Source: Patescibacteria group bacterium
GTDB lineage: Bacteria > Patescibacteriota > Patescibacteriia > 2-12-FULL-57-11
Length of the DNA: 64,000 nucleotides
NCBI GenBank assembly: GCA_004297205.1
Contig: SCUL01000002.1
Coordinates: 658,893 to 722,892, forward strand
Reading direction: 5' to 3'
In this document: positions 10,094-51,609 of the stretch, one piece after another
How positions within the stretch are numbered: position 1 is the first letter of the stretch
Layout of the letters: every line of letters starts with the position of its first letter
Made by a program: the position numbers and the translations under genes
The notes under the pieces: model-generated
What the model was told of the DNA's origin: nothing
Seen by the model: only the letters and a program-made list of their open reading frames with translations
Database searches by the model: none

Positions 10094-11917
10094 GTGGCTC
10101 TTTCCGACCGTTTTTCCCGGCTCCGCAGCCAACACCCCGCACCCGCGGGAGCGGGCGCGGATCTCAACAAACGGCTCCTGACCCGGTTGTCGCCCCGCCG
10201 CACCCCCAGCTGGCGGCAGCTGCGGTATTTACCGACGGTGCTCTCCCGCGTTGAGCGGCGCGTTGCCGCGAGTCTTCTCGCGGTCGTCTTTGTCGGACTC
10301 GGCGTCATGGCGGTGCGCGTCTGGCAGCTCCACGTCGTCTCCGTGCCGGCGCGCGGCGGCGAATACATCGAAGGGCTCGTCGGCGCGCCGACCTACATCA
10401 ACCCGCTGTTCGCGAGCGCCAACGAGGTCGATCTCGACCTGACGCGGCTCGTCTACAGCGGGCTCATGCGCACCACGCCCGAAGGCACGGTCGTGCCGGA
10501 CTTGGCGGAGTCCGTGGAAACGAGCGAAGACGGAAAGACCATCACCGCCCAGCTGCGCGCGGGCCTGCGTTTCCATGACGGCAAGACGCTGACCACGGAC
10601 GACATCCTGTTCACGTTCGAGGCCATTCAGAATCCGGCCTACAAGAGTCCGTACGCGGGGAGCTTCAAGGGAGTGACGATCGCCGCTCCCGACGAACACA
10701 CCGTCACCTTCACGCTGTCCGAGCCCTACGCGCCGTTTTTGACGGCGCTGACCGTCGGCATCCTGCCTGCGCACCTGTGGCGCGACGTGCCGCCGCAGAG
10801 CGCCAACTTGGCCGAGTTCAACCTCAAACCGATTGGCAGCGGCCCCTACAAGTTCAAGGCGTTTTCCCGCGACCGCGTCGGCACCATCCGCAGCTACACC
10901 TTCGAACGGTTTTCCGACAACGGCGGCTCCGGTCCCTTCATCAACCGCGTGGCCTTCCGGTTCTTCCCGGATTTCGATTCGGCGGTCGAGGCCTACCGCA
11001 GCCGCCAGATCGACGGTCTGGGGTTTGCGCCCACCAGCTTGCGCGACCGGCTGCGCGGCCGCCACGACGCCAACGAATACCCGCTGGCCCTGCCGCAGTA
11101 CACGGCGCTGTTTTTCAACCAGAAGCGCGCCGAGGTCTTGAAAGACCCGCAGGTCCGCGAGGCGCTGACGGTGGCGCTCGACCGCGAACGCATCATCGCC
11201 GACGCGCTGCAGGGCGCCGGGGAGCTCGTCGACGGTCCGGTCTTTCCCGGCTTCGCCGGCGTGACCTCGACGCCGCCGCGCGCCGCATTCGACCCGGACA
11301 AGGCGGCGCAGCTCCTCGAGAAGGCCGGCTGGGCCCTGCCCGAGGGCGGCGGTCCGCGCGTGAAATCCACCAAGGACAGCCGCGGCCGCGTCACCGCGAC
11401 GACCACCCTCACCCTCACCCTCACGACCGCGCAGCGCGACGAGACGAGCATGGCCGCCAAAGCCGTCGCCGACACCTGGCGCGCGCTCGGCATCGACGTG
11501 AAGGTGGACGAAGTGCCGGCCGCACGCATGCAGCGCGACGTGCTGCGTCCCCACGCCTACGACGTGCTTCTCTACGGCCAGATCCTCGGCCGCGATCCGG
11601 ATCCGCTGCCGTTCTGGCACAGCGGGCACGCCGTCGAGGGCGGCTTCAACCTGGCGCTGTATGCGAACCGCAACGCCGATGCGCTGCTCGAAGAAGCCCG
11701 CAAGGAACAGGACGCCGAGAAGCGCGGCCTGCTGTACACGCGGTTCGCGAGCCTCGTCGTGTCCGAGCACGCTGCCGCGTTCCTGTACCGGCCGGTCTAT
11801 CCGTACTTCGTGACGACCGCCGTGAAGGGGGTCCGGGCCGACGAGATCGCCGTGCCGGCAGACCGTTTTTCCGGGGTTGCCGATTGGTACATCAAGACGC
11901 GCAAGGGGTGGCGGTAG
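10094..11917 (+). CDS. ABC transporter substrate-binding protein, family 5 (oligopeptide/nickel type)
   Basis: 607 aa with an N-terminal TM anchor and family-5 SBP-like core. GTG start. Confidence 0.7.
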   Translation: MALSDRFSRLRSQHPAPAGAGADLNKRLLTRLSPRRTPSWRQLRYLPTVLSRVERRVAASLLAVVFVGLGVMAVRVWQLHVVSVPARGGEYIEGLVGAPTYINPLFASANEVDLDLTRLVYSGLMRTTPEGTVVPDLAESVETSEDGKTITAQLRAGLRFHDGKTLTTDDILFTFEAIQNPAYKSPYAGSFKGVTIAAPDEHTVTFTLSEPYAPFLTALTVGILPAHLWRDVPPQSANLAEFNLKPIGSGPYKFKAFSRDRVGTIRSYTFERFSDNGGSGPFINRVAFRFFPDFDSAVEAYRSRQIDGLGFAPTSLRDRLRGRHDANEYPLALPQYTALFFNQKRAEVLKDPQVREALTVALDRERIIADALQGAGELVDGPVFPGFAGVTSTPPRAAFDPDKAAQLLEKAGWALPEGGGPRVKSTKDSRGRVTATTTLTLTLTTAQRDETSMAAKAVADTWRALGIDVKVDEVPAARMQRDVLRPHAYDVLLYGQILGRDPDPLPFWHSGHAVEGGFNLALYANRNADALLEEARKEQDAEKRGLLYTRFASLVVSEHAAAFLYRPVYPYFVTTAVKGVRADEIAVPADRFSGVADWYIKTRKGWR

Positions 11918-12239: not shown

Positions 12240-12438
12240 ACTCACGATGTTTCTTGCCCCCCGCCCTGGCGGGGCGGCCCGTCCCGCTCAGCGGGACCCG
12301 TTCCTTCAGAACCAGTAGTCAGAGGATGCTTTCCGAGTTTTTGGTTTTTCGGAAACCCTCCGTTGATTATTCGTGCGCCGGACACGCCGCAGGGCCTGCG
12401 TATCGCCCGCTTCCGTAGCCGCCGCAACCACACAACAC

Positions 12439-14268
12439 ATGTCACCACAGAACACTCCGACGTCGTCCCAGGCGCCGTCCCGCTCAGCGGGACCGCGCCG
12501 CGACGACCGTCGCCATTTCCGCGGCCGCGGGCCGCGGGGACCGCGTCCCCCGGGCGCATCCGTGCCGCAGGGAGCTCCGCACATCAAGGAGTTCACCGGC
12601 GCTGACGGCAAGAAACTCAAGATCATCGTGCTCGGCGGCCTCGAAGAGGTCGGCCGGAATTGCACGTTGGTCGAATACGAAAACGACATCATCTTCATCG
12701 ACATGGGGCTGCAGTTCCCGGAAGAGGACCAGCCCGGGGTGGACTACATCATCCCCAACATGTCCTACGTCCGCGGCAAAGAAAAGAACATCCGCGGCGT
12801 GATCATCACCCACGGCCATTACGACCACATCGGGGCCATCCCGCACGTCGTGCCGCGCATCGGCAATCCGCCGGTCTTCGGGCTGCCGATGACCGCGGGC
12901 ATCATCAAGAAGCGCCAGGAAGATTTTGAAGGCGTGAAGATCAACATCCGCGAGGTGAAGATCGACGACCGGCTCGTGCTCGGCAACTTCCAGGTCGAGT
13001 TCGTGCACATCAACCACTCCATTCCCGACGCCGTGGCCGTCGTCGTCCATACGCCGGTCGGTACCATCATCCATACCGGCGACTGGAAATTCGACTACAC
13101 GCCGATCGGCGCACCGCCGGCCGACTTCATCAAACTGGCTTCGCTGGGCGCCCGCGGCGTGCTCGCGCTCATGGGCGACTCCACGAACGCCGCCCATGCC
13201 GGTCACCAGATTTCGGAGCGCGAAATCGCCAACACGCTGCGGTTGATCCTGGAGAAGGCGCAGGGCCGCGTCATTGTCGGCACCTTCGCCTCGCTTTTGG
13301 GCCGCGTCCGCCAGATCTTCGACATCGCCCAGGACCTGGGCAAGAAGGTCGCGCTCGACGGCTACTCCATGAAGACCAACGTGGAGATCGCCCGCGTGCT
13401 CAAGTACATCAACATCAAGCCGGGTACGCTCATCGACATCGCCCAGATCAACGACTACCCCAAGGACAAGGTCGTGGTAGTCTGCACCGGCGCCCAGGGC
13501 GAAGAGCGGGCCTCGCTCATGCGCATCGCCAACGATGAGCACCGCTCGGTCCGCATTCAGCCGGCGGACACGGTCATCTTTTCGTCCTCCGTCATTCCGG
13601 GGAACGAGCGCACCGTGCAGCGGCTCAAGGACACGCTCTACCGCAAGGGCGCGGACGTCATCCATTACCAGATGATGGACGTGCACGCCGGCGGCCACGC
13701 CATGAAGGAAGACATCAAGTTGATGCTCCTTCTCCTGAAGCCGAAGTACTACATCCCCATCGAGGGCAACCACTTCCTGCTGCGTGAAAACGCCAAGGTG
13801 GCCGCCATGATGGGCATCCCCAAGGAGAACATCTTCGTCGCCGACAACGGCCAGGTCATGGAATTCGTGGCCGGCGGCAAGGGGCGCCTCTCCGACGTCA
13901 AAGTGATGGCCGACTACGTCTTCGTGGACGGCCTCGGGGTGGGCGACATCTCGGAAGTCGTGCTGCGCGACCGCCAGGCGCTGGCCGAAGACGGCATGGT
14001 CGTCGTCGTCGCACCGGTCGCCAAGCGCACCGGCGGGCTCGCCGGTAATCTCGAGATCGTCTCGCACGGCTTCGTGCAGGTGGAACATAACCAGGCGCTG
14101 ATCGACGAGCTGAAGAAACACGTCGAGAAGATCCTGATCGACAAAGACACCAAGAGCGAAGCCGACCCCGACGACATCAAGCGCAAGATCCGCGACGACG
14201 TCGGCGCCTTCCTTTTTACGAAGACGCAGCGTCGGCCGATGATCCTGCCGGTGATCATCGAGGTGTAA
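12439..14268 (+). CDS. rnj: ribonuclease J (metallo-beta-lactamase/beta-CASP RNase)
   Basis: KLKIIVLGGLEEVGRNCTLVEY N-terminal pattern, HGHYDHIG metal motif and full beta-CASP/C-terminal domain. Start uncertain: ATG 12439 or GTG 12373. Both give an Arg/Pro-rich low-complexity N-terminal extension. Confidence 0.9.
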   Translation: MSPQNTPTSSQAPSRSAGPRRDDRRHFRGRGPRGPRPPGASVPQGAPHIKEFTGADGKKLKIIVLGGLEEVGRNCTLVEYENDIIFIDMGLQFPEEDQPGVDYIIPNMSYVRGKEKNIRGVIITHGHYDHIGAIPHVVPRIGNPPVFGLPMTAGIIKKRQEDFEGVKINIREVKIDDRLVLGNFQVEFVHINHSIPDAVAVVVHTPVGTIIHTGDWKFDYTPIGAPPADFIKLASLGARGVLALMGDSTNAAHAGHQISEREIANTLRLILEKAQGRVIVGTFASLLGRVRQIFDIAQDLGKKVALDGYSMKTNVEIARVLKYINIKPGTLIDIAQINDYPKDKVVVVCTGAQGEERASLMRIANDEHRSVRIQPADTVIFSSSVIPGNERTVQRLKDTLYRKGADVIHYQMMDVHAGGHAMKEDIKLMLLLLKPKYYIPIEGNHFLLRENAKVAAMMGIPKENIFVADNGQVMEFVAGGKGRLSDVKVMADYVFVDGLGVGDISEVVLRDRQALAEDGMVVVVAPVAKRTGGLAGNLEIVSHGFVQVEHNQALIDELKKHVEKILIDKDTKSEADPDDIKRKIRDDVGAFLFTKTQRRPMILPVIIEV

Positions 14269-24457: not shown

Positions 24458-25405
24458 CTACTTTCCGCGCAGACGGTTCGCGAGCCGGTACAACGTATAC
24501 CAGAACGGGCGCAGCGGCAACTCCTGCGCCCCCGGCAGGGACACGCGCTGCCCGCCGAAGCCGGTCTTGAAGCGGGTGATGCCGGTCCAGCGATGCGAGG
24601 CGGGTGCGTCGGGCGGCGCGACGCCCCAGAAGTCATACCTCGTGCAGCCGGCGAGCTTGGCGATGCGCATGGCCTCGCCGTGCAATAGATACGGCGCCAT
24701 CAGGTTGCGCTTCAGGTCGGCCGAGGCGCCGTGCAGGTACGTTGCCGTGTCGCCGAAACGGATCAGGATCATGCCGGCGAGAAGATCATCCTCGTGTTCG
24801 GCGATGACCAGATGCGCGGTGCAGGTCTGCGCGTCCTCAAGCGGACCGGCGAGCGCGGTAAGCATCTTCTGATAGTACCCCTCCGGATGCAGGGAGAAGC
24901 CGTCGCGTTTGGCCGTGGCCGCGAATATCTGCCAAACGGCGGGCCAGTCTCCGGCGCCGCCGATGCGTACGGTGACGCCGTGCTTCTGCGCCAGGCGCAG
25001 ATTGTAGCGCGTCTTGTGGTGCATGGCCGCCAGCAGCGCCTCCTCGGATTGCGTCAGGTCCAGAAGGAGCGTGTGCTCCGGCAGGCGCGCGGCTGCGGCG
25101 GTGCCACCCGCGACACCGGCGGACGCGGCCGCTTCGACGTGCAGAAAGGTGCCGTTCGTTTTCTTGAGATCGCCGATGAGGCGCTCGGCGAGCGCCTGCG
25201 TGAACGGTGCGCGGAAAACATCCCATTCGGTGAGGCCACCGGGCAACGGCCGGGACACGACCTGCGCCGCAACGCCGCCCTGCTCGTAGCGGCGCACCTC
25301 GCGGCCGACGTTGCGTTGGAATTCACCCCACTGCCATGACTGCAAGAACGCCCCCGAAACGGGAGCGTGGGCGAGCGCGGCGCGGTTCCATTCCTGGGGC
25401 GACAT
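24458..25405 (-). CDS. FemAB-family peptidoglycan interpeptide-bridge aminoacyltransferase (FemX-like)
   Basis: 315 aa with the FemAB/PF02388 pattern (YNLRLAQKHGV...FLVWTT..., C-terminal RYDFWGV). Confidence 0.75.
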   Translation of the reverse strand: MSPQEWNRAALAHAPVSGAFLQSWQWGEFQRNVGREVRRYEQGGVAAQVVSRPLPGGLTEWDVFRAPFTQALAERLIGDLKKTNGTFLHVEAAASAGVAGGTAAAARLPEHTLLLDLTQSEEALLAAMHHKTRYNLRLAQKHGVTVRIGGAGDWPAVWQIFAATAKRDGFSLHPEGYYQKMLTALAGPLEDAQTCTAHLVIAEHEDDLLAGMILIRFGDTATYLHGASADLKRNLMAPYLLHGEAMRIAKLAGCTRYDFWGVAPPDAPASHRWTGITRFKTGFGGQRVSLPGAQELPLRPFWYTLYRLANRLRGK

Positions 25406-25498
25406 GCCGCCATCCTACAAAAGAAAACCCCGAGGGGCTAGAGGCAGCGGGGATTGACAGGCAGGCTTGGCGGTGCGGGAGGGGCGCCGTGATACAGT

Positions 25499-25951
25499 AT
25501 GGCTGTGGATATGCCGAGCAAGAAAAGATACGTCACGGAAGAGTACTTGGAGACCCGCTTGGACAAGCTCGTCCAGGAGGTCGCGGTTGTATTTCAATCG
25601 AGTTTTTCCGAACAACAGGTCCAGATCAATGAGTTGCGCGAGATGGTCAGGCAGGGTTTTGGGATACTTGATGGTTTTGTGGGAAAGATGAATCGTCTAC
25701 ATACGCTTCGTGAGGTCCATCGCTGCCTCCGATCCGTGAGTCGCTTCGCCGCCACATGCCTTCGGGATGTTCCACCCGTCGGTCACGCTGCGGTTCGTCG
25801 CTCCTCGTCCGATATCACCAGTCAGTCTGATGTTCTCGGAAGAGGAGAGGATCTTGGAAGACCCTCTGGAACGGCCGTCGCCCGTTCCTGCCTGTGCGCT
25901 ACGTCTCGCGCACGAGGTCGATTGCGGCCTGCAGATCGGACATATTCCTGA
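25499..25951 (+). CDS. hypothetical small protein (only the N-terminal ~78 aa unique part is convincing)
   Basis: The N-terminus MAVDMPSKKRYVTEEYLETRLDKLVQEV... looks like a real amphipathic protein. From ~25738 the frame reads through repeat element R1, so the C-terminal ~70 aa may not be genuine. Confidence 0.3.
   Translation: MAVDMPSKKRYVTEEYLETRLDKLVQEVAVVFQSSFSEQQVQINELREMVRQGFGILDGFVGKMNRLHTLREVHRCLRSVSRFAATCLRDVPPVGHAAVRRSSSDITSQSDVLGRGEDLGRPSGTAVARSCLCATSRARGRLRPADRTYS
25738..25892 (-). repeat. intergenic repeat element R1 (long form, tail A)
   Basis: Begins GAGTCGCTTCGCC...GGGATGTTCCACCCGTCGGTCA and ends with the hairpin GGAACGGCCGTCGCCCGTTCCTGCC. The core is diverged. Confidence 0.7.
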
Positions 25952-26111
25952 TCCGGTCCACCAGGCCCACCTTCCTGAGCACCGCGCTGATTTCCCTGCC
26001 ACCCGTCGTCAGGCCGGCCTCGGCCAGCAGCGCCTCGGCCTTCTCCTTCGCCTCGAGCAGGGAGCATCGCTGCGTCTCATGCAGCACCCCCATGACGACC
26101 ATTCTGTTCAT
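25899..26111 (-). CDS. hypothetical small protein (70 aa)
   Basis: MNRMVVMGVLHETQRCSLLEAKEKAEALL..., preceded by GGAGA-7 nt-ATG immediately after repeat R2. Confidence 0.4.
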   Translation of the reverse strand: MNRMVVMGVLHETQRCSLLEAKEKAEALLAEAGLTTGGREISAVLRKVGLVDRIRNMSDLQAAIDLVRET

Positions 26112-26123
26112 GTCTTCGTCTCC

Positions 26124-26293
26124 AGTCGCTTCGCCGCTGCGCGCCTTCGGGATATTCCACCCGTCGATCATGCCGCGTTCTCGTTCCTCGTCTCACGCCA
26201 CGAGTACCTGCTCATGCCTTGAGAAGAGGAGAGGGCGCTTGCGCGTACCGCATCGCCCCCGAGACTTTGACCGCTGTCTCCTGCGGGCCGTGT
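26124..26293 (-). repeat. intergenic repeat element R2 (long form, tail B)
   Basis: AGTCGCTTCGCC...GGGATATTCCACCCGTCGATCA...CCTCGTCTCACGCCACGAG...CTCATGCCTTGAGAAGAGGAGAGG, plus hairpin tail GAGGGCG...CGCCCCC. It sits between the stop of the 172-aa gene and the RBS of the 70-aa gene. Confidence 0.75.
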
Positions 26294-26812
26294 TCACGGC
26301 GTTTCGAGCATGTCTTCCCACGTTCGATCATCGCCCCATTCTGCCTGAACGAGGCGTGCGCCGGCTGGTGTCCAGACACCGCACTGCACCGACATCCAAC
26401 TGACTCTCGGGAGATTCACCGGATCGATGCGAGTGAAGAGCTCGGCCGCCTTCCTTTCGTGGAAGTACCCGATGAGACGGCTGTCGCTCCGATTGTCGTA
26501 ACCGCCATCCGGAAGCTTGAACGGAAGGCAGCCCTCGGGGTGTGTCACACCGTAGACCAGGTGGCCGTCCGAAGCGTCGACGCGGAAACGGACGCGGTAG
26601 ACCCTGCCGATGCTGCTGACGGCTTCCGCGGAAGCCGGTTGGATCTCGGGAGCTTCTCCCTTGAAGAACACGACGATCCAGCCGCAGACGGTGAGAGGTA
26701 CGACTTGGACGCGCAGCTCGCGAGCACGCTTGCGCAGGACGTTCGCCTGGCGATTGAGCTCCTCGACCTGCGACTCCACGCTCTTCAGTTCGCTGACCAA
26801 TAGATGAACCAT
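26294..26812 (-). CDS. hypothetical membrane protein (N-terminal coiled coil, one TM segment, C-terminal domain)
   Basis: 172 aa, SD GGGAGAAAAAATG, MVHLLVSELKSVESQVEELNRQANVLRKRARELR, then TM segment VVPLTVCGWIVVFF. Confidence 0.5.
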   Translation of the reverse strand: MVHLLVSELKSVESQVEELNRQANVLRKRARELRVQVVPLTVCGWIVVFFKGEAPEIQPASAEAVSSIGRVYRVRFRVDASDGHLVYGVTHPEGCLPFKLPDGGYDNRSDSRLIGYFHERKAAELFTRIDPVNLPRVSWMSVQCGVWTPAGARLVQAEWGDDRTWEDMLETP

Positions 26813-26838
26813 TTTTTCTCCCGTTCTCCTTTTTGTTT

Positions 26839-26929
26839 CCTCGTCTCACCGCACGAGCGTCGCTCATGCCTTGAGAAGAGAAGGAGTCGCGTGACTCCTT
26901 GGAACGGCCGTCGCCCGTTCCTGCCTTGA
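26839..26929 (-). repeat. intergenic repeat element R3 (short form, tail A)
   Basis: Core CCTCGTCTCACCGCACGAGCGTCGCTCATGCCTTGAGAAGAGAAGGAG plus hairpins AAGGAGTC-acgc-GACTCCTT and GGAACGGCCGTCGCCCGTTCC. The last hairpin abuts the stop of the lipoprotein gene. Confidence 0.7.
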
Positions 26930-27322
26930 TCAGGGAAACGTCGCCACCCATCCGTTCGGAAGGACGAACTCCTCTGCCGGACCGACGTTCCCGGTGGCCA
27001 CCTCGCCGACGAAATTGCCGTCGATGATCTGGATGTTCCGGAGGTGCGCCTCACGAGCGGGAACCACTCGGCAGCGGCTCCGGACGTGGAAGCCATCGGC
27101 GGCTTCGCAGTGGCCACGCTCGTTGGCGGCATCCGGACCGAACCATGTGCCGCGACCGTCGCGCTCGCAGGTCGCCTCGCAGAGCACGTCGGCAGGCTGC
27201 GGACAGCCCGCCTCGATGATGGCGACGGCTTCGGCCAGGTTGTCGTAGCAGGCATCGCCCTCCGACGGAGGCGACTGCGTGCAGCCGACCAGCATCAGAG
27301 CAGAGAAGATGATTGCACGCAT
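26930..27322 (-). CDS. lipoprotein (lipobox LVGC)
   Basis: MRAIIFSALMLVGC-TQSPP signal/lipobox, 130 aa with 8 Cys. Internal Met of ORF 26930..27586. Confidence 0.6.
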   Translation of the reverse strand: MRAIIFSALMLVGCTQSPPSEGDACYDNLAEAVAIIEAGCPQPADVLCEATCERDGRGTWFGPDAANERGHCEAADGFHVRSRCRVVPAREAHLRNIQIIDGNFVGEVATGNVGPAEEFVLPNGWVATFP

Positions 27323-27336
27323 CGCACACCCCATTG

Positions 27337-27507
27337 AGTCGCTTCGCCGTCGCATGTCTCCGGGATATTCCACCCGTTGATCACGTTTCGGTTCATCGCT
27401 CCTCGTCTCACGCCACGAGCGTCGCTCATGCCTTGAGAAGAGGAGAGGGCGCGTGCGCGAATCGCCGCACCCTCGAGACTTTTTTCGTCGGCTGTCTCCC
27501 GCCGGAA
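27337..27507 (-). repeat. intergenic repeat element R4 (long form, tail B)
   Basis: The best-conserved copy: GAGTCGCTTCGCCGTCGCATGTCTCCGGGATATTCCACCCGTTGATCACG...CGCTCCTCGTCTCACGCCACGAGCGTCGCTCATGCCTTGAGAAGAGGAGAGG, plus tail GAGGGCGCG...CGCACCCTC ending at the stop of the upstream gene. Confidence 0.75.
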
Positions 27508-28095
27508 CTACTTCCGCCACCTCGCGATCTCCTTGAACGTGGCCTCGTCCACCTCTAGACCGGGGGATGATCCGAGGGTCCACCACCGCCGCGGCGGTGC
27601 GGCGACGTCCTTCATCGCCGCCTCGTACTCGTCGACCTCGATGAGGTCGAACAGGACCGACGCGTCGAGACCGATCGCATCATCGATCTCAAGAAGACGC
27701 GCGGCCAGGCCGCTGTCCGCCGTTTCCATGAGCGCGCGCTCGAGTGAGCAGCGCGCCGCGAAGCACGAGCGGACGGTGTGGAACTCGTCAACACCGCACG
27801 GCAACTCGCCGTTCGCGATGAGGGGGAGGATTCCCGCCATTTCCTCGAACTCCTCAGCGCATGCGAGCGCGTAGCGGAGTCCGTCCTCCTCTCTTTTCGC
27901 CGTCATCTGTGCGGCGGCGTCGCACATGTTGCGGAGATCGGCCACCTCCCTTCGCACCTCTTCGGCGGTGTCAGGCTCGCACCCGCACACCCCCTCGTCG
28001 GTGCGGCATGGACAACCCATGCCGGAGTGCCCGTATGGGCGCTCCGAGAAGTTCTTTACCCTCTCTGACCCACAGAAAGCACAAGCCATGTGCAT
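27508..28095 (-). CDS. hypothetical Cys-rich (zinc-ribbon-like) acidic protein
   Basis: Internal Met of ORF 27508..28302 (MHMACAFCGSERVKNF...GMGCPCRTDEGVCGC...). SD AAGGAG precedes the start. The upstream part of the long ORF is repeat-encoded. Confidence 0.5.
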   Translation of the reverse strand: MHMACAFCGSERVKNFSERPYGHSGMGCPCRTDEGVCGCEPDTAEEVRREVADLRNMCDAAAQMTAKREEDGLRYALACAEEFEEMAGILPLIANGELPCGVDEFHTVRSCFAARCSLERALMETADSGLAARLLEIDDAIGLDASVLFDLIEVDEYEAAMKDVAAPPRRWWTLGSSPGLEVDEATFKEIARWRK

Positions 28096-28108
28096 CTCCT
28101 TTTTTCTT

Positions 28109-28262
28109 GAGTCGCTTCGCCACAACGCGCCTCCGGGATATTTCACCCATCGGTCACATTGTAGCTCATCGCTCCTCGTCTCACACCACGAGCGGATTCG
28201 TGAGTTGAGATGAAGAAGAGGATCTTGGAAGACCCTCTGGAACGGCCGTCGCCCGTTCCTGC
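28109..28262 (-). repeat. intergenic repeat element R5 (long form, tail A)
   Basis: GAGTCGCTTCGCCACAACGCGCCTCCGGGATATTTCACCCATCGGTCA...CCTCGTCTCACACCACGAG...GAAGAGGATCTTGGAAGACCCTCTGGAACGGCCGTCGCCCGTTCCTGCC. Confidence 0.75.
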
Positions 28263-28268
28263 CGATTG

Positions 28269-28447
28269 CTACTCGTTCAATGCCATCTCCTCGATCAACC
28301 ACCGTTCGTCGGGGTCCTCGAGGTCCATTTCGTACTTCTCCGCGAGTTCCAACACTCGCTGCGCGAACAGCTGCTGCGCCTTTGTTTCATCGAACCCGGC
28401 GGCGATGAAGTCACCGAGGGTGAAGGCTGCCGTCTCGTACACTGCCA
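28269..28447 (-). CDS. hypothetical small acidic protein (~59 aa)
   Basis: MAVYETAAFTLGDFIAAGFDETKAQQLFAQRVLELAEKYEMDLEDPDERW..., SD GAGGAGG directly after R6. Below the ORF-track length cutoff; coordinates are approximate. Confidence 0.35.
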
Positions 28448-28453
28448 TGGTTT

Positions 28454-28544
28454 CCTCCTCGTCTCACGCCACGAGCGTTGCTCATGGTTTGAGATGAAAA
28501 GAGGATCTTGGAAGATCCCCTGGAACGGCCGATGCCCGTTCCTG
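28454..28544 (-). repeat. intergenic repeat element R6 (short form, tail A)
   Basis: CCTCCTCGTCTCACGCCACGAGCGTTGCTCATGGTTTGAGATGAAAAGAGGATCTTGGAAGATCC...GGAACGGCCGATGCCCGTTCCTGC. Its second hairpin GGATCTT-gg-AAGATCC shows compensatory changes relative to R1/R5. Confidence 0.7.
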
Positions 28545-28597
28545 CTTGCCCCGAGCGAAGTCGAGGGGCCTGTCCCGCGCGTCTCGCGGGACTGTAG

Positions 28598-28689
28598 TGG
28601 CACCGTCGGGAGTCGAACCCACTGATTGCCCCGACACTTGGTGTTGCCAAGCTGGAGAATCCCCTCCATATATATCGTCAGGCAGTGCC
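28598..28689 (-). other. tRNA-like fragment / pseudo-tRNA (possible integration-site remnant)
   Basis: On the minus strand: GGCACTG...GTGGG-TTCGACT-CCCGA-CGGTGCC-A. There is a 7-bp acceptor-like pairing including one G.U and a canonical T-arm/T-loop. No D-arm or anticodon arm could be folded. It is followed by an 8-bp GC hairpin GTCCCGCG/CGCGGGAC. Confidence 0.25.
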
Positions 28690-28718
28690 TTGTGCGCCCT
28701 TTGTCGAGGCGCTGTTCA

Positions 28719-28841
28719 CTACTTTTTGTCGCTGTCCTCCTGAACCGCGATCCAGCCGCGCTTGATGGCGTAACGGACCAGCAACGCGCCGGCAGAACAG
28801 ATCATGACCCAGATGAACGCAACGATGATGATCTTCAACAT
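28719..28841 (-). CDS. hypothetical 40-aa single-TM protein
   Basis: MLKIIIVAFIWVMICSAGALLVRYAIKRGWIAVQEDSDKK, SD GAGGAGG-4 nt-ATG directly after R7. Confidence 0.3.
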   Translation of the reverse strand: MLKIIIVAFIWVMICSAGALLVRYAIKRGWIAVQEDSDKK

Positions 28842-28845
28842 GCGA

Positions 28846-28930
28846 CCTCCTCGTCTGACCGCACCACCGGAGTGATGCCTTCGGAAGAGGAGAGAGCGCA
28901 TGCGCGATCCGCATCGCTCTCTGGACCCGT
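28846..28930 (-). repeat. intergenic repeat element R7 (short, diverged core, tail B-like hairpin)
   Basis: CCTCCTCGTCTGACCGCACCACCGGAGTGATGCCTTCGGAAGAGGAGAGAGCG-catgcgcgatccgcat-CGCTCTC. The hairpin is perfectly complementary and shows compensatory changes versus R2/R4. Confidence 0.6.
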
Positions 28931-28965
28931 TTTGTTTCTCCGGTGGGGTCCGAACCGGTTGTGCC

Positions 28966-29238
28966 TCAGCGCGAGGCGTAGATGATGGCCTCGCCATCGG
29001 CCACGATGTGCGTGGTTCCGACGGTGTACTCCTCGTGGGAGCGCAGCGTCTCGACCACCACGGGCACACGACCGACGATCTCGATCGTGTCGAGGACGAT
29101 CACGTGGCTTTCGGGCCGCGTGGTCTCCCGCGCCTCGTGGCGCTCTTCCCAGGCGAGAACCGCCGGGGACGTCATCGTGAGCGACGCGAACGCCGAGAGG
29201 CAGAGAACCGCGAACCCGAGCACCATGAGCTTCGTCAT
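28966..29238 (-). CDS. hypothetical secreted protein (~90 aa, signal peptide)
   Basis: Internal Met MTKLMVLGFAVLCLSAFASLTMTSPAVLA of ORF 28966..29529. The upstream part of that ORF is low-complexity. Confidence 0.45.
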   Translation of the reverse strand: MTKLMVLGFAVLCLSAFASLTMTSPAVLAWEERHEARETTRPESHVIVLDTIEIVGRVPVVVETLRSHEEYTVGTTHIVADGEAIIYASR

Positions 29239-29480
29239 CTTCGTTTTTCCGTTTTCCCGGTAGAGCTCTCCGCAGTGGCGTTTCCGCGTACTGAGTGCTC
29301 TCCGCCACACGACCCGATCTCTCACCCTCAGGTCTTGTGGCGGTGGGTTTTCAAGGTCCGCTTCGGCCGGCACCTGTGACGACAAGCTGCACATGTGCCG
29401 TCCGGTTCCTCCTTTTCCATCCTTAAAGAACGCATGACTATAGCATGCCCAAGCGGTTTTGTCAAGCCTGCGCCTGGCAT

Positions 29481-29512
29481 AAAGCAAAGAAAGTGGCTCA
29501 TCTGAGCCACTT
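29481..29512 (-). terminator. rho-independent terminator downstream of ruvA
   Basis: Perfect 10-bp palindrome AAGTGGCTCA-tc-TGAGCCACTT, followed on the minus strand by a T-rich run. Confidence 0.7.
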
Positions 29513-29539
29513 TCCCTGTATAGAGCCAAGAAACACGTG

Positions 29540-30091
29540 TTATTTTCTCTTCAAAATAGCCAGTGTTTTTTTGAACCGTTCGGCATCCGGAAGATCCATG
29601 GAAACGGCGCTGAGCGCGGCTGCCGCTTCCTGCTTGCCGTAGCCCATGGTGACGAGCGCGTCCTGCAGATCGTCGGTCGGGCCGTCGTCGGCATCCACCA
29701 GCTTTCCCTTGAGTTCGAGGACGATTTTTTGGGCGGTTTTTTTGCCGACGCCGTGGGCCGAGGAAATGGCGCCGATGTCGCCCCGCTCGATTGCCGAGCG
29801 CACCGTCTGCGGGCTGCCCATGGCGAGGATGGCCAGCCCGGTGCGCGGTCCGACCCCGGAAACCGCGATCAGCTGCCAGAATAGTTCGAGCGCGTCGAGC
29901 GTGGCAAAGCCGAAGATCTCGCGGCCGTCGTCGCGGATCGCTTCATGGGTGTAGAGCGTGGTGCTGCTGCCGGGCGCGTTCTTGGCGAGCAGGTCCGCCG
30001 CGCACACAACACGGTAGCCGACCCCGGCCACGTCGATGATGACGTAGTCGTTGCCGCGGGCCAGGATTGTTCCGGTGAGAGAAGCGATCAT
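29540..30091 (-). CDS. ruvA: Holliday junction DNA helicase RuvA
   Basis: 183 aa with the RuvA N-terminal OB domain, helix-hairpin-helix pair and C-terminal domain pattern. Confidence 0.9.
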   Translation of the reverse strand: MIASLTGTILARGNDYVIIDVAGVGYRVVCAADLLAKNAPGSSTTLYTHEAIRDDGREIFGFATLDALELFWQLIAVSGVGPRTGLAILAMGSPQTVRSAIERGDIGAISSAHGVGKKTAQKIVLELKGKLVDADDGPTDDLQDALVTMGYGKQEAAAALSAVSMDLPDAERFKKTLAILKRK

Positions 30092-47742: not shown

Positions 47743-48015
47743 TCAGCTGACGTTATTGTGCATCCACCGGAGGACGACGTCGTCAAGATTTTCAGACCAC
47801 CAAGAAGTCGTCATCCTGGTGATCAGCAGCCGGTCATTCGCGTCGAGACCGCCGGAGCCAAGGAGGTGGGTACGGAGTTCATCGCCCGAGAGAGACGTCT
47901 TCACCAGCCAGACGGATTCAAGAGGCCTGGCATAGGCGAACTGCCGCAGCGCCGCGTGCAATGTCGAATAGTCCTTCCCCACCTTCCGGAGATCGTAGCT
48001 GACCAAGTAGGTCAT
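47743..48015 (-). CDS. stand-alone Cas2/VapD-like small protein
   Basis: 90 aa, MTYLVSYDL...VGKDY..ALRQFAYARPLESVWLV... matches the Cas2 beta-alpha-beta layout (YDV....VAK...YG.RVQNSVF). No cas1 and no CRISPR array in the window. Confidence 0.35.
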   Translation of the reverse strand: MTYLVSYDLRKVGKDYSTLHAALRQFAYARPLESVWLVKTSLSGDELRTHLLGSGGLDANDRLLITRMTTSWWSENLDDVVLRWMHNNVS

Positions 48016-48147
48016 GTGATTGTTGGGCCGCCAGTGTGCTACACTAGTCGTGGTCCTGCTCCACGTCGCGCGTGCTTGGAGCGGCCGCTCTAGGAATGAA
48101 TGGACCGTTATCCCGGTCCATTCGGTATTTTCCCGCAGGTGTGAATC

Positions 48148-48177
48148 TTTGTCAACTTACTCCACACGGGTTGACAA
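48148..48177 (+). promoter_or_regulatory. inverted repeat TTGTCAAC-N13-GTTGACAA overlapping a -35 TTGACA upstream of the XRE gene
   Basis: Perfect 8-bp arms. The right arm contains TTGACA about 31 nt upstream of the ATG. Candidate autoregulatory operator. Confidence 0.45.
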
Positions 48178-48207
48178 CATCCATGTGCCTTGTAAAGATA
48201 GACCTCT

Positions 48208-48561
48208 ATGCAAACCCTTGGTGAGAAGATCAAGGTTCTCCGGGTGGCCAAGGGAATGACGCAGGAGGATCTGGCCGGGAAGCTTGGCTACTCGAAGTCT
48301 TTCATTTCCTATATTGAGAGTGGCGAGCGGAATCTGAGTGACGTCGATACCGATCGTATCGCGAAATGCCTAGAAGTGAGCGCGGAAGACCTTCGTTCGA
48401 AAGGTGCCGTCGTTTCGTTTCAGTTTCGTTCATCGAAGGTCGGCACAGACGAGGAGCACCGCAAGGTTGCTCAGAAGTTCACAGATTACGCGAGGAAACT
48501 AATCGAGGATTCGGATTCCAACCAGGAAGCCAGCGTATGGAAGGGCAGTCAGAAAAGATAA
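48208..48561 (+). CDS. XRE-family helix-turn-helix transcriptional regulator
   Basis: KIKVLRVAKGMTQEDLAGKLGYSKSFISYIESGERNLS HTH. Confidence 0.8.
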   Translation: MQTLGEKIKVLRVAKGMTQEDLAGKLGYSKSFISYIESGERNLSDVDTDRIAKCLEVSAEDLRSKGAVVSFQFRSSKVGTDEEHRKVAQKFTDYARKLIEDSDSNQEASVWKGSQKR

Positions 48562-49013
48562 GAGGAATATTGAAACAAGCGGGCATTACTGTTCCGCCCG
48601 TGGACGTCACAAAGGTGGCCGAGCTGTTTTCGATCCCTGTCATTCCCTACCCAGACTTCCCCGAAGACATCTCGGGGACCATCGTCCGTTTGGATGACAA
48701 CGGCAAGGCGGTGATCGGCATCAATCAGAAACACGCGGCCGTTCGGCAGCGGTTCACGGTGGCGCACGAATTGGGTCACTACCTCTGCGGCCATGACGAC
48801 CGCACCATTGTCGATGATCGTCTCGACAAGGACAGTCCGAAGGAAACCGAAGCCAACCGTTTCGCAGCGGAGCTTCTCATGCCTCGGGATTTGCTTGTCG
48901 TTGACCTAAAGAAGGGTCGCTTTGATATACCTGCTCTAGCTCAGCGCTACCAGGTGAGTGAGCAGGCGATGTCGGTAAGGTTGCTCCAGTCCGGATTGCT
49001 GAAGAAGTTCTAA
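48537..49013 (+). CDS. ImmA/IrrE-family metallopeptidase (HEXXH)
   Basis: FTVAHELGHYLCGHDD HEXXH motif, ...EANRFAAELLMP. Internal Met MEGQSEK of ORF 48366..49013, overlapping the XRE gene by 25 nt. Confidence 0.8.
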   Translation: MEGQSEKIRGILKQAGITVPPVDVTKVAELFSIPVIPYPDFPEDISGTIVRLDDNGKAVIGINQKHAAVRQRFTVAHELGHYLCGHDDRTIVDDRLDKDSPKETEANRFAAELLMPRDLLVVDLKKGRFDIPALAQRYQVSEQAMSVRLLQSGLLKKF

Positions 49014-49099
49014 GTGCGATTCCACTTCGCTTTCAGGAAGTGATTTCTAACATCGTTGATTGGGGTCCACCAAAAGGATTCCAGCATTTGCCATGAAAT

Positions 49100-49660
49100 A
49101 TGCCTGATGAACAAAAAGAAAAGATCGAGATTGCGAGACATTTCGATACTCAGCTTTGGGCAATTCCAGCAGTATTTGTAACCATGGTCGCGTTTCTTTC
49201 TGAAGGACTCGACAAGAAAGACTTTGTAGGTTGGTGGAATTTTTGCTTTTTTCTGACAGCAGCCGCCTTTTCCTGGCTCCTGTTGTTGCTTTTTAATAAA
49301 GTTCACTTTCAACAACTGAGGCTTAGTCACCCTTCAAAGAAAAGCGCGCCCCAGGAGAGCGAGGACAAGGGCGACAAAGAACTCGCGCTTGATTCATTTT
49401 TTTCGCTCTCGAGAGGTGAAGTTGTTCAAGAGGTTCAACGACTAAAGGGTGAGGGCGTGGATATATCACTTTGGCAAGAGTGGCTTGCAAAGCGGACCGT
49501 GGCGGCATGGTGGCGCATTGTCATGACCCTTTTCGCTGTTGGAACTCTTGTGGTAGCTGCATACATTTTTTTCATTCTGATCGGTGATTGTGCAACGCGG
49601 ACGCAGAGTCGGCCTTTTGTTCAGTGTGTAATATCAGCAAAGGCGATTACATATAATTAA
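49100..49660 (+). CDS. hypothetical membrane protein
   Basis: 186 aa with several TM helices; AT-richer than the flanking core genome. Confidence 0.5.
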   Translation: MPDEQKEKIEIARHFDTQLWAIPAVFVTMVAFLSEGLDKKDFVGWWNFCFFLTAAAFSWLLLLLFNKVHFQQLRLSHPSKKSAPQESEDKGDKELALDSFFSLSRGEVVQEVQRLKGEGVDISLWQEWLAKRTVAAWWRIVMTLFAVGTLVVAAYIFFILIGDCATRTQSRPFVQCVISAKAITYN

Positions 49661-49663
49661 GAT

Positions 49664-50125
49664 ATGGATGATCGGGCATTTCTCGAGATCGCAGTAGATG
49701 TTTCTCGGGAATCAGTTATTCTCGGCGGTTTTCCCGTCGGGGCGATCATTGTTCGAGAAGGAGAAATCATTTCGCGCGGCGTCAGCAATGGCAAGCAGCT
49801 GAAAGATCCGACCAGTCACGCTGAAATCGCCGCCATCCGTGACGCCTGTCAGAAGTTGCAGAGGCAGAGTTTGAAAGATGCGGTTCTTTACTCGTCGATG
49901 GAGCCGTGCCTGATGTGCTTTGCTGCGGCGACGTGGGCCTCCGTACCGAGAATAGTGTATGCCTGTGGCAGGGCACGGGTGGGTGAAGAGCATTTTGAAG
50001 GCGCGCACGATGTCCCCGCGTTGAATGCACGTGCCCGCAAGCCCATCGAATTCCTCCACATCACCACCCTCGAAGAAACGGCGGCCCAAGTGATAAGCGA
50101 ATGGAAAACGGAATCCTCGCGATAA
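49664..50125 (+). CDS. cytidine/deoxycytidylate-type zinc deaminase (TadA/guanine deaminase-like)
   Basis: SHAEIAAI and MEPCLMCFAA zinc-binding motifs (H-A-E ... P-C-x-x-C). Confidence 0.8.
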   Translation: MDDRAFLEIAVDVSRESVILGGFPVGAIIVREGEIISRGVSNGKQLKDPTSHAEIAAIRDACQKLQRQSLKDAVLYSSMEPCLMCFAAATWASVPRIVYACGRARVGEEHFEGAHDVPALNARARKPIEFLHITTLEETAAQVISEWKTESSR

Positions 50126-50187
50126 GAGAGGATAAATTCGGTGAAATAGCTGCTAGAATCAGAGAGGTGGAGGGACGGTCGTAGCCG

Positions 50188-51099
50188 TTGGCGGCTTACT
50201 TGAATACCATGCATTGGATTTCACTCTCCTTGCTTGGCCCGCTCTTTTGGGCCTCATCTAATTTCGTCGATAAGTACATCCTCAGTAAACACTCGAAGGG
50301 GATCTTCGACTTCCTTTTCTTTTCAACAATCACGAGTTGGTTCTTGTTTGTCCTTCTGTTTATTTTTGTCGGGATGCCGGAACTGACGGTGTACTCATGG
50401 ATACCTATTTTGACGGGAGTCATCCTCATCTACTCGTACGGCTTCTACGGAAAGGCGCTCGAACAGGGGGACACATCGGCGCTCGTCATTCTGTTCAAGT
50501 TGATTCCAGTTATCACGCTCATCCTGGCGTTCGTCTTTTTAGGTCAAACCGTATCTTCTCGTGAGCTGCTCGGTTTTTTGATCGTTCTTGCGGGAGCAAC
50601 GATCGTTTCGTTTGAAAAAAGCAGAGGCGTCCTTATCAAAGGTTTTGGCATGATACTCATTGCCATATTCATGTGGTCCGTGATGACCCTTTTCATCGAT
50701 TACGGACTCACAAAGATGTCTTTCTGGGATTACTTTTTGCTCGATACTTTGGGTTCAGCGATAGCCGGACTGACGTTTTTTATTGTTCCCGCGATGCGGA
50801 GACAAATCATTGATGGGTTGAAAACTGCCACCACCGGTAAATATGTTTGGTTTTCCGGAAACAATCTTTTGGATTTCTTTGGCCAAATGAGCGTTAAGAA
50901 GGCTCTTGCGATTGCTCCCTCTGCCGGCCTGGTGACGGTCGTCACGCAAGTACAATCTTTCTATGCGATAGTGATTGGACTTGTGCTGACGCTCCTCATC
51001 CCCAAGATCATAAAGGAAGACATCTCCAGGTTTACTTTAGTGAAAAGATTCGTTGGCGCTTTGATCATGTTCTCGGGAGTCTATATTTTGTTGGCGTAG
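50188..51099 (+). CDS. EamA/DMT-superfamily transporter
   Basis: 303 aa, ~10 TM helices in two halves. Start possibly at MHWISLS (50209). Confidence 0.7.
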   Translation: MAAYLNTMHWISLSLLGPLFWASSNFVDKYILSKHSKGIFDFLFFSTITSWFLFVLLFIFVGMPELTVYSWIPILTGVILIYSYGFYGKALEQGDTSALVILFKLIPVITLILAFVFLGQTVSSRELLGFLIVLAGATIVSFEKSRGVLIKGFGMILIAIFMWSVMTLFIDYGLTKMSFWDYFLLDTLGSAIAGLTFFIVPAMRRQIIDGLKTATTGKYVWFSGNNLLDFFGQMSVKKALAIAPSAGLVTVVTQVQSFYAIVIGLVLTLLIPKIIKEDISRFTLVKRFVGALIMFSGVYILLA

Positions 51100-51589: not shown

Positions 51590-51609
51590 ACTCGACTTCG
51601 CCATCGCAC

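Follow-up and report, generated by a model that had tools for sequence, protein, structure and literature searches.

The window analyzed in this study is a 64-kb stretch of a high-GC Patescibacteria chromosome. Between ruvA and a FemAB gene it contains a repeat array (25735–28965) in which every gap between small minus-strand genes is filled by a copy of the repeat, resulting in seven copies (R1 to R7) in a single orientation (Table 1). Neighbors of the array are ruvA, RNR and IleRS upstream and FemAB, tRNA-Arg, DUF11 and DUF4012 downstream. The genes between the repeats have no known relatives and are unrelated to each other. For G8, the first gene, no match was obtained in Pfam, PHROG or PADLOC. 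G3 is under purifying selection relative to its single homolog (differences by codon position 45/28/74), and a homolog of G7 sits after a Cys-rich gene in the related arrays L006 and L010. After R1, nothing but a 7-codon gene remnant is left. Within 25300–29700, the only promoter-like site is located at the head of the array, and this promoter is kept in L006, L014 and L015. Canonical terminators, i.e. a GC hairpin followed by a T-run of 4–5, were found at the array end only, in L006, L010 and L017. Searches for phage DNA and phage proteins gave no matches.

Table 1. Coordinates of the promoter, genes and junction repeats of the array in transcriptional order.
Feature	Position	Strand	Description
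Promoter	29437–29465	−	sigma-70-type, TTGACA-17-TATAGT with TG, 11/12 matches; upstream of G8
G8	28966–29238	−	90 aa, first gene; signal-peptide-like N-terminus; kept in all five related genomes
R7	28848–28965	−	AACCGGTT; P0b 28923–28951; P2 (tail B) 28892–28921; P3 28848–28891; MFE −52.8 kcal/mol, z −3.9
G7	28719–28842	−	ORF; 40-aa predicted membrane peptide
R6	28456–28542	−	P1 28522–28542; P2 (tail A) 28501–28520; P3 28456–28500; z −4.7
G6	28269–28448	−	ORF; 59 aa, without known relatives
R5	28106–28259	−	P1 28239–28259; P2 (tail A) 28217–28238; P3 28173–28216; P4 and GGCGAAGCGACUC 28106–28172
G5	27508–28092	−	195 aa, Cys-rich (EPO33_04810); sole database match is itself
R4	27333–27498	−	GAGAC..GUCUC hairpin 27475–27498; P2 (tail B) 27445–27474; P3 27400–27444; P4 and GGCGAAGCGACUC 27333–27399; MFE −56.6 kcal/mol, z −4.2
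G4	26930–27323	−	ORF; 130 aa, lipoprotein-like, without known relatives
R3	26838–26921	−	P1 26901–26921; P2 (tail A′) 26883–26898; P3 26838–26882
G3	26294–26812	−	172 aa (EPO33_04800); one homolog, 64% identity, in related array L017
R2	26120–26280	−	GAGAC..GUCUC hairpin 26261–26280; P2 (tail B) 26231–26260; P3 26185–26230; P4 26120–26184
G2	25899–26111	−	ORF; 70 aa, without known relatives
R1	25735–25888	−	P1 25868–25888; P2 (tail A) 25847–25866; P3 25802–25846; P4 25735–25801; z −4.9

A sequence-only reading had described the repeat as a conserved core with an additional long module in R1, R2, R4 and R5, short copies R3, R6 and R7, and either tail A (R1, R3, R5 and R6) or tail B (R2, R4 and R7). 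This layout is correct and all sequences quoted for it are present in the window. The repeats within the span given (26124–28930) are real, but R1 (25735–25898 as a repeat) falls outside, and the long module measures about 67 nt instead of 75 nt. A covariance model of the core returned exactly seven copies across the 64 kb of the window, all on the sense strand and within 25802–28891, and neither this model nor searches for core, module and hairpin found copies in the remaining 60 kb. The core occurs five times at ≤3 mismatches versus 0.01 expected by chance, the long module four times versus 0 expected, and the GGAACGG..CCGTTCC hairpin four times. Copies within a genome are 60–98% similar. 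The junctions match no known family in Rfam: no match in the array reached the gathering threshold, and at E ≤ 5 over 25600–29600 none was located in a junction.

Hairpins of the junctions

The core, previously taken for a linear conserved sequence, is a long hairpin of 44–46 nt (P3) and the site of the strongest covariation. Its pyrimidine-rich 5′ arm, the “anti-Shine-Dalgarno” CUCCUCUUC, pairs with the Shine-Dalgarno-like 3′ arm GAAGAGGAG, and the lower stem reads UCCUC.UCNNA / UNNGA.GAGGA. P3 consists of 18 pairs, a mismatch and an internal loop of 2–3 nt, corresponding to about 21 stacked layers, and its length is constant in 22 copies, with a small variable loop and no bulged bases. The mismatch is recurrent (U.C in eight copies, A.C in five; a U-A pair in six), and a U.G at columns 17–30 is kept in 21 of the 22 copies with adjacent pairs covarying.

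P3 was part of the MFE fold in all 18 copies first folded. Using a covariance model from 18 copies, four more were detected in L017 (E ≤ 1.5e-7), which fold alike, and nothing further was found in the window or in unrelated loci. For covariation analysis, the 22 copies from five related genomes were aligned with MAFFT without fitting to the structure (18 copies in an earlier version). In this alignment of copies that stem from few lineages and hence are not independent events, 94.7% of cells pair, two-sided (compensatory) changes occur at 12 of the 18 pairs, and the covariation score is 0.375 versus 0.153 for shuffles, with none of 500 shuffles reaching 0.375. In slid registers, pairing falls to 37–54%. 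The earlier observation that complementarity is kept through sequence change is confirmed with these additional homologs, and its interpretation as functional structure is supported.

For the short copies it had been proposed that the core end GACGAGGAGG directly serves as Shine-Dalgarno sequence of the next gene. This holds for R7, where the 3′ arm of P3 is located 4 nt ahead of the start of G7, and for R6 with GGAGG 5 nt before the ATG of G6, but not for R3, where a separate GGAG/GGGAG lies about 25 nt downstream. Altogether, the arm is the working Shine-Dalgarno sequence of a called gene in only two of the 22 copies. P3 resembles Shine-Dalgarno-sequestering leaders such as RNA thermometers and riboswitch expression platforms, where a pyrimidine tract pairs with the Shine-Dalgarno sequence right before the start codon, and also the SAS/ESAS motifs of Cluster K mycobacteriophages, which are repeated, anchored to translation starts and have an inverted repeat upstream. 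It differs from the leaders by the rare use of the paired arm and by terminal copies without downstream gene, and its sequence is not similar to ROSE, fourU or SAS, the latter motif being GGGATAGGAGCCC (PMC3203893). In the terminal copies (L006, L010 and L017), P3 is kept with compensatory changes, with no gene following and a true terminator adjacent. Therefore, Shine-Dalgarno sequestration is not the whole function of P3, and 3′ protection would be redundant at these sites.

The tails (P0b, P1 and P2) and the long module (P4) form hairpins too, and 21 of the 22 copies have a gap of 0 nt between P2 and P3. The P2 hairpin is rich in GC, and next to it comes UCCUCUUC, which is itself paired as the 5′ arm of P3. 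In a terminator scan, P2 of R6 passed while six of the seven P2 hairpins in the window failed. Compensatory changes are also seen in P0b, P1, P2 and P4, e.g. GAGAGCG/CGCUCUC versus GAGGGCG/CGCCCUC within one tail type. The covariation claimed for the tails is real within each type, but part of it had compared the alternative tails A and B, which have only the basal 5 bp of one hairpin in common (GAGGG/CCCTC) and are wholly different above since they belong to different upstream gene cassettes. The long module begins with an ATG where the short copies have their start codons. P4 is free of codon-position bias (11/8/13), and its pairing is kept despite an in-frame stop in one copy and a frameshift in another.

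Strand preference

Whether the structure acts as RNA or DNA had been left open in the sequence-only reading. On the gene-sense strand, G.U exceeds A.C by 68 to 15 overall, by 40 to 10 in P3 and by 17 to 2 in P4, and folding is more stable for the sense than for the antisense strand in all seven window junctions and in 19 of 22 P3 hairpins. This asymmetry favors the mRNA and makes a top-strand ssDNA less likely, although it leaves some room for a role of top-strand DNA because G.T pairs also stabilize ssDNA hairpins. Strong covariation together with the preference for the transcribed strand makes the hairpins most likely RNA signals.

Comparison with cassette arrays and extragenic repeats

According to block homology, each tail moves together with the gene it follows and P3/P4 together with the gene they precede, which places the cassette boundaries at one point, P2|P3. 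Gene content varies among related genomes at one fixed site between ruvA and FemAB, the G3 and “MELTKRMYG” cassettes are arranged in another order in L017 than in the window, and tail B of R2 has its ortholog in the L017 tail that follows G3. Orthologous junctions stay with their genes across genomes.

These features also fit an integron-like DNA site, with P2|P3 as a structured att site folded as ssDNA, a recombinase encoded elsewhere that moves circular cassettes [P3-ORF-P2], and RNA effects being secondary. As in integron attC or CALIN arrays (the latter being clusters of attC sites without integrase), one promoter precedes small genes that lack promoters, share one orientation and have unknown functions, each of them followed by an imperfect palindrome conserved in structure and variable in sequence, the sites resemble one another within the lineage, and the cassette boundaries lie inside a composite site. 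Also, the gene-less P3 at the array end resembles an empty site, and the conserved hairpin length, mismatch and internal loop partly resemble those of attC (PMC5027507). However, the junctions lack the R box of attC, in which an AAC triplet is conserved and RYYYAAC at one end of the site pairs with GTTRRRY at the other (PMC5027507): both boxes are found in 0 of 22 junctions on either strand, and no AAC triplet is conserved. An attC site folds into one imperfect hairpin whose terminal structure varies and which has extrahelical bases and an unpaired central spacer; here, P3 has no bulged bases and always comes with a second, abutting hairpin (P2), and G.T pairs favor the top (coding) strand, whereas in attC the bottom strand is favored, with more G:T pairs and lower free energy (PMC5027507). 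Unlike in a complete integron, no IntI tyrosine recombinase adjoins the first cassette, and the array lies between housekeeping genes of tiny Patescibacteria genomes. No integrase Pfam family or recombinase domain was found within about 10 kb on each side of the L010 array, and no recombinase domain among the scanned neighbor genes of the window array. Two different loci were never seen to share an identical cassette, circular junctions were not observed either, and homologous recombination in and around the near-invariant CCUCUCCUCUUC tract would create the same boundaries. We regard an integron-like site as unlikely.

Exchange points between variable unknown genes are also known from T4-type phages, where composite promoter-early stem-loop (PeSL) motifs in a hyperplastic region mediate shuffling (PMC2839356, PMC4122927). 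In a PeSL, a sigma-70-like early promoter comes after a stem-loop terminator (PMC4122927). In a PeSL/moron-type array, transcription would stop after each gene at P2 with the pyrimidine tract behind it and start anew from a promoter in the core, in agreement with the GC-rich P2 ahead of UCCUCUUC and with the R6 hairpin that passes the terminator scan. But a promoter-like hexamer pair is present in no junction, true terminators here have T-runs of 4–5, the other P2 hairpins fail the scan, and the long covarying helices of P3 and P4 as well as the conserved U.G are left unexplained, so that this reading appears very improbable.

The BIMEs of enterobacteria and pseudomonads are palindromic, mosaic, extragenic units of modular make-up, often intercistronic, and REP/BIME elements are known to stabilize upstream mRNA segments. 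The junctions share this palindromic, mosaic, extragenic and modular character (for REP properties, see PMC3733652 and PMC3116915) and could be REP/BIME/MITE-type selfish or structural repeats that colonize intergenic DNA with no specific role in the operon. REPs, in contrast, are 20–40 bp long and are scattered in hundreds of copies, in either orientation or as inverted doublets (REPINs). Their marks are a GTAG or CGTC tetranucleotide at one palindrome end and an associated RAYT transposase gene (PMC3733652). Here, all seven copies share one orientation relative to the genes and sit within 3.3 kb at a single locus, with none in the other 60 kb of the window, and in L010 six of six copies lie inside the array with none elsewhere in 20 kb. 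Repeat search and alignment revealed no inverted doublets, nor the marks of a MITE, namely terminal inverted repeats spanning a unit and target-site duplications. No GTAG or CGTC tag is common to the hairpin ends, the 5′ flank of P1 being GCAG in the window copies and either GTAG or GCAG in those of L010. Together with the retention of orthologous junctions this makes dispersed repeats of that type highly improbable. Neutral leftovers of a tandemly duplicated ancestral gene and spacer without selected structure are hardly credible, since the similarity of copies within a genome and the aligned ATG of the long module are outweighed by mutually unrelated genes, by the compensatory changes in P3, P0b, P1, P2 and P4 and by P4 pairing that persists without coding bias, the covariation controls having largely refuted this explanation.

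Proposed role on the transcript

We favor the explanation, to which we give roughly even odds, that the repeats form composite junctions of a small-gene operon with one promoter, where they act chiefly through RNA structure in the sense transcript, in its processing, stability and translation, and in addition as recombination junctions. Phage T7 RNase III signals such as R1.1 are likewise hairpins of about two turns with an internal loop between cistrons and shortly upstream of the next ribosome binding site; once they are cleaved, the upstream message retains a protective 3′ hairpin, whereas cleavage of the junctions is putative. Unlike the T7 signals, the junctions are located on a bacterial chromosome and contain additional hairpins (P0b/P1/P2/P4), and the two are unrelated in sequence. 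Published features of RNase III reactivity are a length of two helical turns, stacking of coaxial helices and internal loops, which limit cleavage and leave protective 3′ hairpins (PMC1540722), and P3 with the directly abutting P2 has this geometry. A six-frame search of the 64-kb window for an ERLEFLGD-type motif revealed no RNase III gene; RNase J is encoded in the window at 12373–14268.

Each junction consists of the 3′ tail of the upstream cassette (P0b or P1, then P2) abutting the 5′ leader of the downstream cassette, i.e. P3 and sometimes P4. The presumably co-transcribed genes would yield a polycistronic mRNA that may be cleaved at the stacked P2/P3 helices or inside them; the endonuclease would be double-strand- or junction-specific, with RNase III as the obvious candidate. 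Thereby, each gene would keep a 3′ hairpin blocking 3′ exonucleases, and the structured 5′ end would resist 5′-end-dependent decay by RNase J. Where the 3′ arm of P3 is a real Shine-Dalgarno sequence, cutting or melting may also gate translation. As a secondary consequence, cassettes of the type P3-(P4)-ORF-tail would be gained, lost and re-ordered by recombination at P2|P3.

The gene array and the hairpins at its junctions

The window is bacterial chromosome with a GC content of about 65% and carries RNase P RNA, three tRNAs, and genes for IleRS, ribonucleotide reductase, RuvA, RNase J and a FemAB-family protein; one stretch of lower GC (0.51–0.53 vs ~0.65 elsewhere) may be a foreign island. 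All genes between ruvA and FemAB lie on the minus strand, including seven consecutive small genes, G8 (90 aa), G7 (40 aa), G6 (59 aa), G5 (195 aa), G4 (130 aa), G3 (172 aa) and G2 (70 aa). Every intergenic gap of this array contains one repeat (R1 to R7) in uniform orientation; sequences are given here for the sense strand. Two array proteins are identical to the database entries EPO33_04800 and EPO33_04810, and none of the seven genes had a match in Pfam, PHROG or PADLOC.

Coordinates of features in the window and in related arrays
Feature	Sequence	Position	Strand
ruvA	window	29540-30091	
FemAB-family gene	window	24458-25405	
Repeat R1	window	25735-25898	
Sigma-70-like site TTGACA-17-TATAGT	window	29437-29465	
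Palindrome directly after ruvA	window	29485-29529	both
Hairpin GGACNUGA/GGGUGAGAGA	window	29302-29343	-
Hairpin GGACNUGA/GGGUGAGAGA	L010	~11275-11330	
Palindrome AACCGGUU	window	28952-28965	-
tRNA-like element	window	28598-28689	-
tRNA-like element	L006	~4390-4480	-
13-mer GGCGAAGCGACUC	window	25735-25747, 26120-26132, 27333-27347, 28106-28120	-
Deletion scar	window	25659-25720	-
Convergent coiled-coil ORF	window	25499-25951	+
Low-GC stretch	window	48001-52000	
Hairpin CCUCCCA...UGGAGAGG	L010	10366-10402	
Hairpin CCUCCCA...UGGAGAGG	L015	~739-775	

We class the repeats as structured elements between the cistrons of an array with variable gene content. A sequence-only reading had described them as modular, with a conserved core and two covarying hairpin tails. 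All sequences it named are present in the window, far more frequently than by chance, and its distribution of long (R1, R2, R4, R5) and short copies and of the two tail types (A in R1, R3, R5, R6; B in R2, R4, R7) agrees with ours; R1 falls just outside the interval it delimited. The core did not hold up as a linear conserved sequence: when each intergenic region was folded, every copy gave the same hairpin domain of 44–46 nt, termed P3. In its lower stem, a pyrimidine run closing the tail region (UCCUC-U-UCUCA) pairs with a purine run, the "Shine-Dalgarno end" (UGAGA-C-GAGGA), followed by an internal loop of 2–3 nt, an upper stem of 6–8 bp (CAUGAGC/GCUCGUG or CAUCAC/GUGGUG) and a terminal loop of 3–6 nt. 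This longer covarying helix replaces the CTCGT..ACGAG mini-hairpin considered for the core. The purine arm had also been taken as the Shine-Dalgarno sequence of the next gene in all short copies, which is correct for R6 and R7; R3 has its own GGAG further downstream.

Covariation was analyzed in a plain MAFFT alignment of 22 P3 copies from the window and related arrays, with no fitting to the structure. Standard pairs occupied 94.7% of 395 cells, and 12 of the 18 pairs showed two-sided changes, so that the proposed covariation persisted after homologs had been added. The covariation score was 0.375 compared to 0.153 ± 0.015 in column shuffles, none of which (0/500) reached the observed value, and sliding the partner strand by 1–3 columns lowered pairing to 37–54% and the score to 0.05–0.11. 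Examples from the inner part of the lower stem, changed on both sides, are UCUCA/UGAGA, UCCGA/UCGGA, UCCCA/UGGGA, UCUCGG/CCGAGA and CAAACGG/CCGUUG. When a covariance model was trained on 18 copies, it detected four copies of the related array L017 that were not in the training set (E <= 1.5e-7), and no further site in the 64-kb window, in the 20 kb of the related contig L010 that lie beyond its array, or at any of eight unrelated loci.

P2, the tail hairpin adjoining the core, directly abuts P3 (gap of 0 nt in 21 of the 22 copies, 1 nt in the remaining one). P2 was counted by base anchoring; MAFFT alignments of these short hairpins were out of register. Tails A and B have the basal GAGGG/CCCUC pairs in common and diverge above them, with compensatory changes inside the P2 types (A-U vs G-C at pair 4; inner-stem GCG/CGC vs UGG/CCA). 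The tail hairpin P1, GGAACGG..CCGUUCC, changes to GUCGCGG..CCGCGAC and GCGAUGG..CCAUCGC in L010, thereby preserving the 7-bp stem and a GCNNCGG-like loop. P0b, an extra hairpin of R7-type tails (GGACCC..GGGUCC), covaries to GGAUCC/GGAUCC and AGUUCC/GGGACU. Also in R7-type tails, an 8-nt palindrome, AACCGGUU, lies 3′ of the stop codon and recurs at the same position in nine other junctions. Its CCGGU could pair with ACCGG inside the P0b loop, possibly giving two mutually exclusive hairpins or a pseudoknot.

The "75-nt module" of the long copies is the 17-pair hairpin P4, of which the supposedly variable "N7" forms one strand of the stem. Six copies showed compensatory change at three pairs and many exchanges among G-C, G.U and A-U. 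An ATG at the start of P4 in 4 of 6 aligned copies corresponds in position to the start codons of the short copies, and P4 may descend from a former gene start. The reading of P4 as a leader peptide or as an N-terminal coding stub was rejected in favor of RNA structure, because substitutions are unbiased by codon position (11/8/13) and the reading frame contains a stop in one copy and is shifted in another. P4 has at its 3′ end the 13-mer GGCGAAGCGACUC, with a GCGAAGC mini-hairpin motif. This 13-mer hardly changes among the window and L017 copies and little more in L010 (GGUGAAGCGACUC), in contrast to the variable stems next to it; GCGACUC also serves the P2 hairpin of tail A′ as its 3′ arm.

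Imperfect pairs are overwhelmingly G.U on the sense strand, equivalent to A.C on the other strand (G.U vs A.C: P3, 40 vs 10; P4, 17 vs 2; P2, 7 vs 3; P0b and P1, 4 vs 0). One U.G of the P3 upper stem is kept in 21 of 22 copies, and the pairs on either side of it covary. The sense fold was more stable than the antisense fold in all seven window junctions, by 2.3 to 10.6 kcal/mol, with sense z-scores of −2.7 to −4.9, and in 19 of 22 isolated P3 hairpins. This strand bias points to mRNA, with the top DNA strand as a formal alternative.

Related arrays, cassette boundaries and transcription

Scanning 185,579 genomes for exact patterns returned one true relative, the Patescibacteria MAG L006, and seven chance matches; a metagenome scan returned solely the population of L006. 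This genome has the same ruvA-array-FemAB synteny with only two junctions. With the G8 protein as query, four more proteins were obtained, leading to contigs with six, one and two junctions (L010 with its duplicates L011-13, L014 and L015, respectively), and a further array with four junctions, L017, was reached through the sole homolog of G3. L016 turned out to be the strain of the window from a different sample. An apparent strain-level cassette swap between L010 and L011-13 was merely a different start-codon call. Differences between G3 and its L017 homolog are distributed over the codon positions as 45/28/74, and by its sequence G3 evolves as a real gene.

Three comparisons define the cassette boundaries. 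The G3 block common to the window and L017 extends from the upstream P3 through tail B and ends 8 nt into the next P3, and the upstream tails and downstream cores around it differ. In R1, P3, P4, the ribosome-binding site and the first codons match an L017 junction (L017_b), and the preceding tails differ (tail A vs P0b plus tail B). Junctions L014_a and L015_b have the P3 type and the downstream gene in common and differ in their upstream genes. Therefore, the moving unit is [P3-(P4)-ORF-tail], and the repeat appeared modular in the sequence-only reading because two cassette ends meet in it. The G3 cassette and a second one, 'MELTKRMYG', follow each other in a different order in L017 than in the window. 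The 'MELTKRMYG' gene is intact in L017 (about 150 aa), and the window has only a 7-codon stub after R1 (MDLTKRM*). At this end of the window array, a deletion scar was observed that joins the stub to the middle of the convergent coiled-coil gene; the frame of that gene now continues through R1 into G2, and the terminal P3 and terminator of L006, L010 and L017 are absent.

Between 25300 and 29700 there is a single sigma-70-like site, upstream of G8 and just past a hairpin resembling a ruvA terminator, and relatives have kept it. The terminator scan was passed only by P2 of R6. The last junction element of the array in L006, L010 and L017 is a P3, after which come GGAAAAC, a canonical terminator (GC hairpin and T4-5) and the convergent coiled-coil gene. 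From these sequence features, we infer that the array would be a single operon with readthrough of the junctions.

Several other elements were noticed in these regions. Immediately after ruvA lies the palindrome AAAGUGGCUCA-gaug-AGCCACUUU with UCUUU behind it; this palindrome is kept in all relatives, is probably the ruvA terminator and also caused weak, spurious "mir-1255" matches in Rfam. A second repeated hairpin, CCGCC-N-GGACNUGA[GGGUGAGAGA]UCNNGUC-N-GGCGG, was found in the long 5′ UTR of G8, in L006 and L010, and twice each in L014 and L015; in relatives it lies just before a small Cys-rich gene, with the start codon in its 3′ arm. Its 10-nt purine loop is conserved, its stem covaries (GACCUGA/UCGGGUC, GGCAUGA/UCGUGCC, GGACAUGA/UCAUGUC), and Rfam gave no match for it. 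Between G7 and R6 lies a tRNA-like element of 92 nt, 85% conserved in L006, with a 7-bp acceptor-like stem (GGCACUG/CGGUGCC) followed by A, the T-arm-like hairpin GGGUUCGACUCCC and two extra internal hairpins. It was called neither by ARAGORN nor by Rfam, and may be a tRNA that has degenerated, the scar of an old integration or a signal within the operon for processing by RNase P/Z.

Candidate functions of the junctions

Bacterial RNase III substrates comprise two helical turns, extendable by coaxial stacking, and internal loops restrict cleavage in them and leave a protective 3′ hairpin (PMC1540722). The junctions have matching features, namely a helix of constant length and about two turns with an internal loop and a second hairpin stacked against it, placed between cistrons just before the ribosome-binding site. 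Intercistronic sites of T7 follow the same design of a two-turn helix with an internal loop between cistrons. Because of these matches, we favor, by analogy, the junctions as a processing, stability and translation module. After a cut at P2/P3, each message would have P2 at its end and structure at its beginning, and the latter would be relevant as the organism encodes RNase J. Structure at the 5′ end matters for decay by RNase J. In R6 and R7, where the P3 arm is a real Shine-Dalgarno sequence, the cut would unmask it. We infer a combination of cleavage, stabilization and translational gating, within the limits that terminal copies retain P3 though no gene lies downstream and that the paired arm is a working Shine-Dalgarno sequence in only 2 of 22 copies. 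No RNase III gene was found in the 64-kb window. In L010 and L015, another hairpin 3′ of P3, CCUCCCA...UGGAGAGG, pairs a CCUCC tract with the Shine-Dalgarno sequence of the next gene (128 and 123 aa, respectively); Shine-Dalgarno sequestration therefore recurs in the array with unrelated sequences.

We consider it unlikely that the primary role of the junctions is recombination, as sites of a type not yet described. The closest known architecture is indeed an integron cassette array or a CALIN, a cluster of attC sites without integrase (PMC4889954), and the cassettes differ in order and neighbors between relatives. However, the RYYYAAC/GTTRRRY boxes of attC occur in none of the 22 junctions, no integrase lies within about 10 kb of the array in L010 or among the neighboring genes scanned in the window, and the strand favored in attC (PMC5027507) is opposite to that of the junctions. 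We would give rather little credence to a specific integron analogue in Candidate Phyla Radiation bacteria, in which promoterless [P3 hairpin-ORF-P2 hairpin] cassettes are inserted, excised and re-ordered at P2|P3 by an unlinked recombinase, the att site folds on the top strand without the attC consensus, and the same hairpins also punctuate the mRNA. REP/BIME elements differ in copy number, dispersion, orientation and tag, and PeSL elements in the promoter. A phage origin (50,697 phage records searched at the DNA level with no match, no PHROG match, and nothing or one chance match within a coding region in three pattern scans of viral contigs for core, P0 and P3), a defense system (no PADLOC match), a known RNA family (no match of the junction repeats in an Rfam scan) and TIGR-Tas arrays, irrelevant as the units here contain protein-coding genes, were rejected. 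A literature search gave no relevant report of such junctions.

Relevance for Patescibacteria

Patescibacteria have tiny genomes and little is known about their regulation; to our knowledge, this clade has no cultured representative. The array provides a self-contained, strongly covarying RNA module punctuating an operon of small secreted, membrane and Cys-rich proteins with fast turnover, and thereby a concrete, testable case of post-transcriptional operon organization in these bacteria. If the junctions were recombination sites, the integron problem would have been solved a second time, independently of attC. Metagenomes and metatranscriptomes can be searched directly with our covariance model, and the array shows a route for slotting new genes of unknown function into an expressed site.
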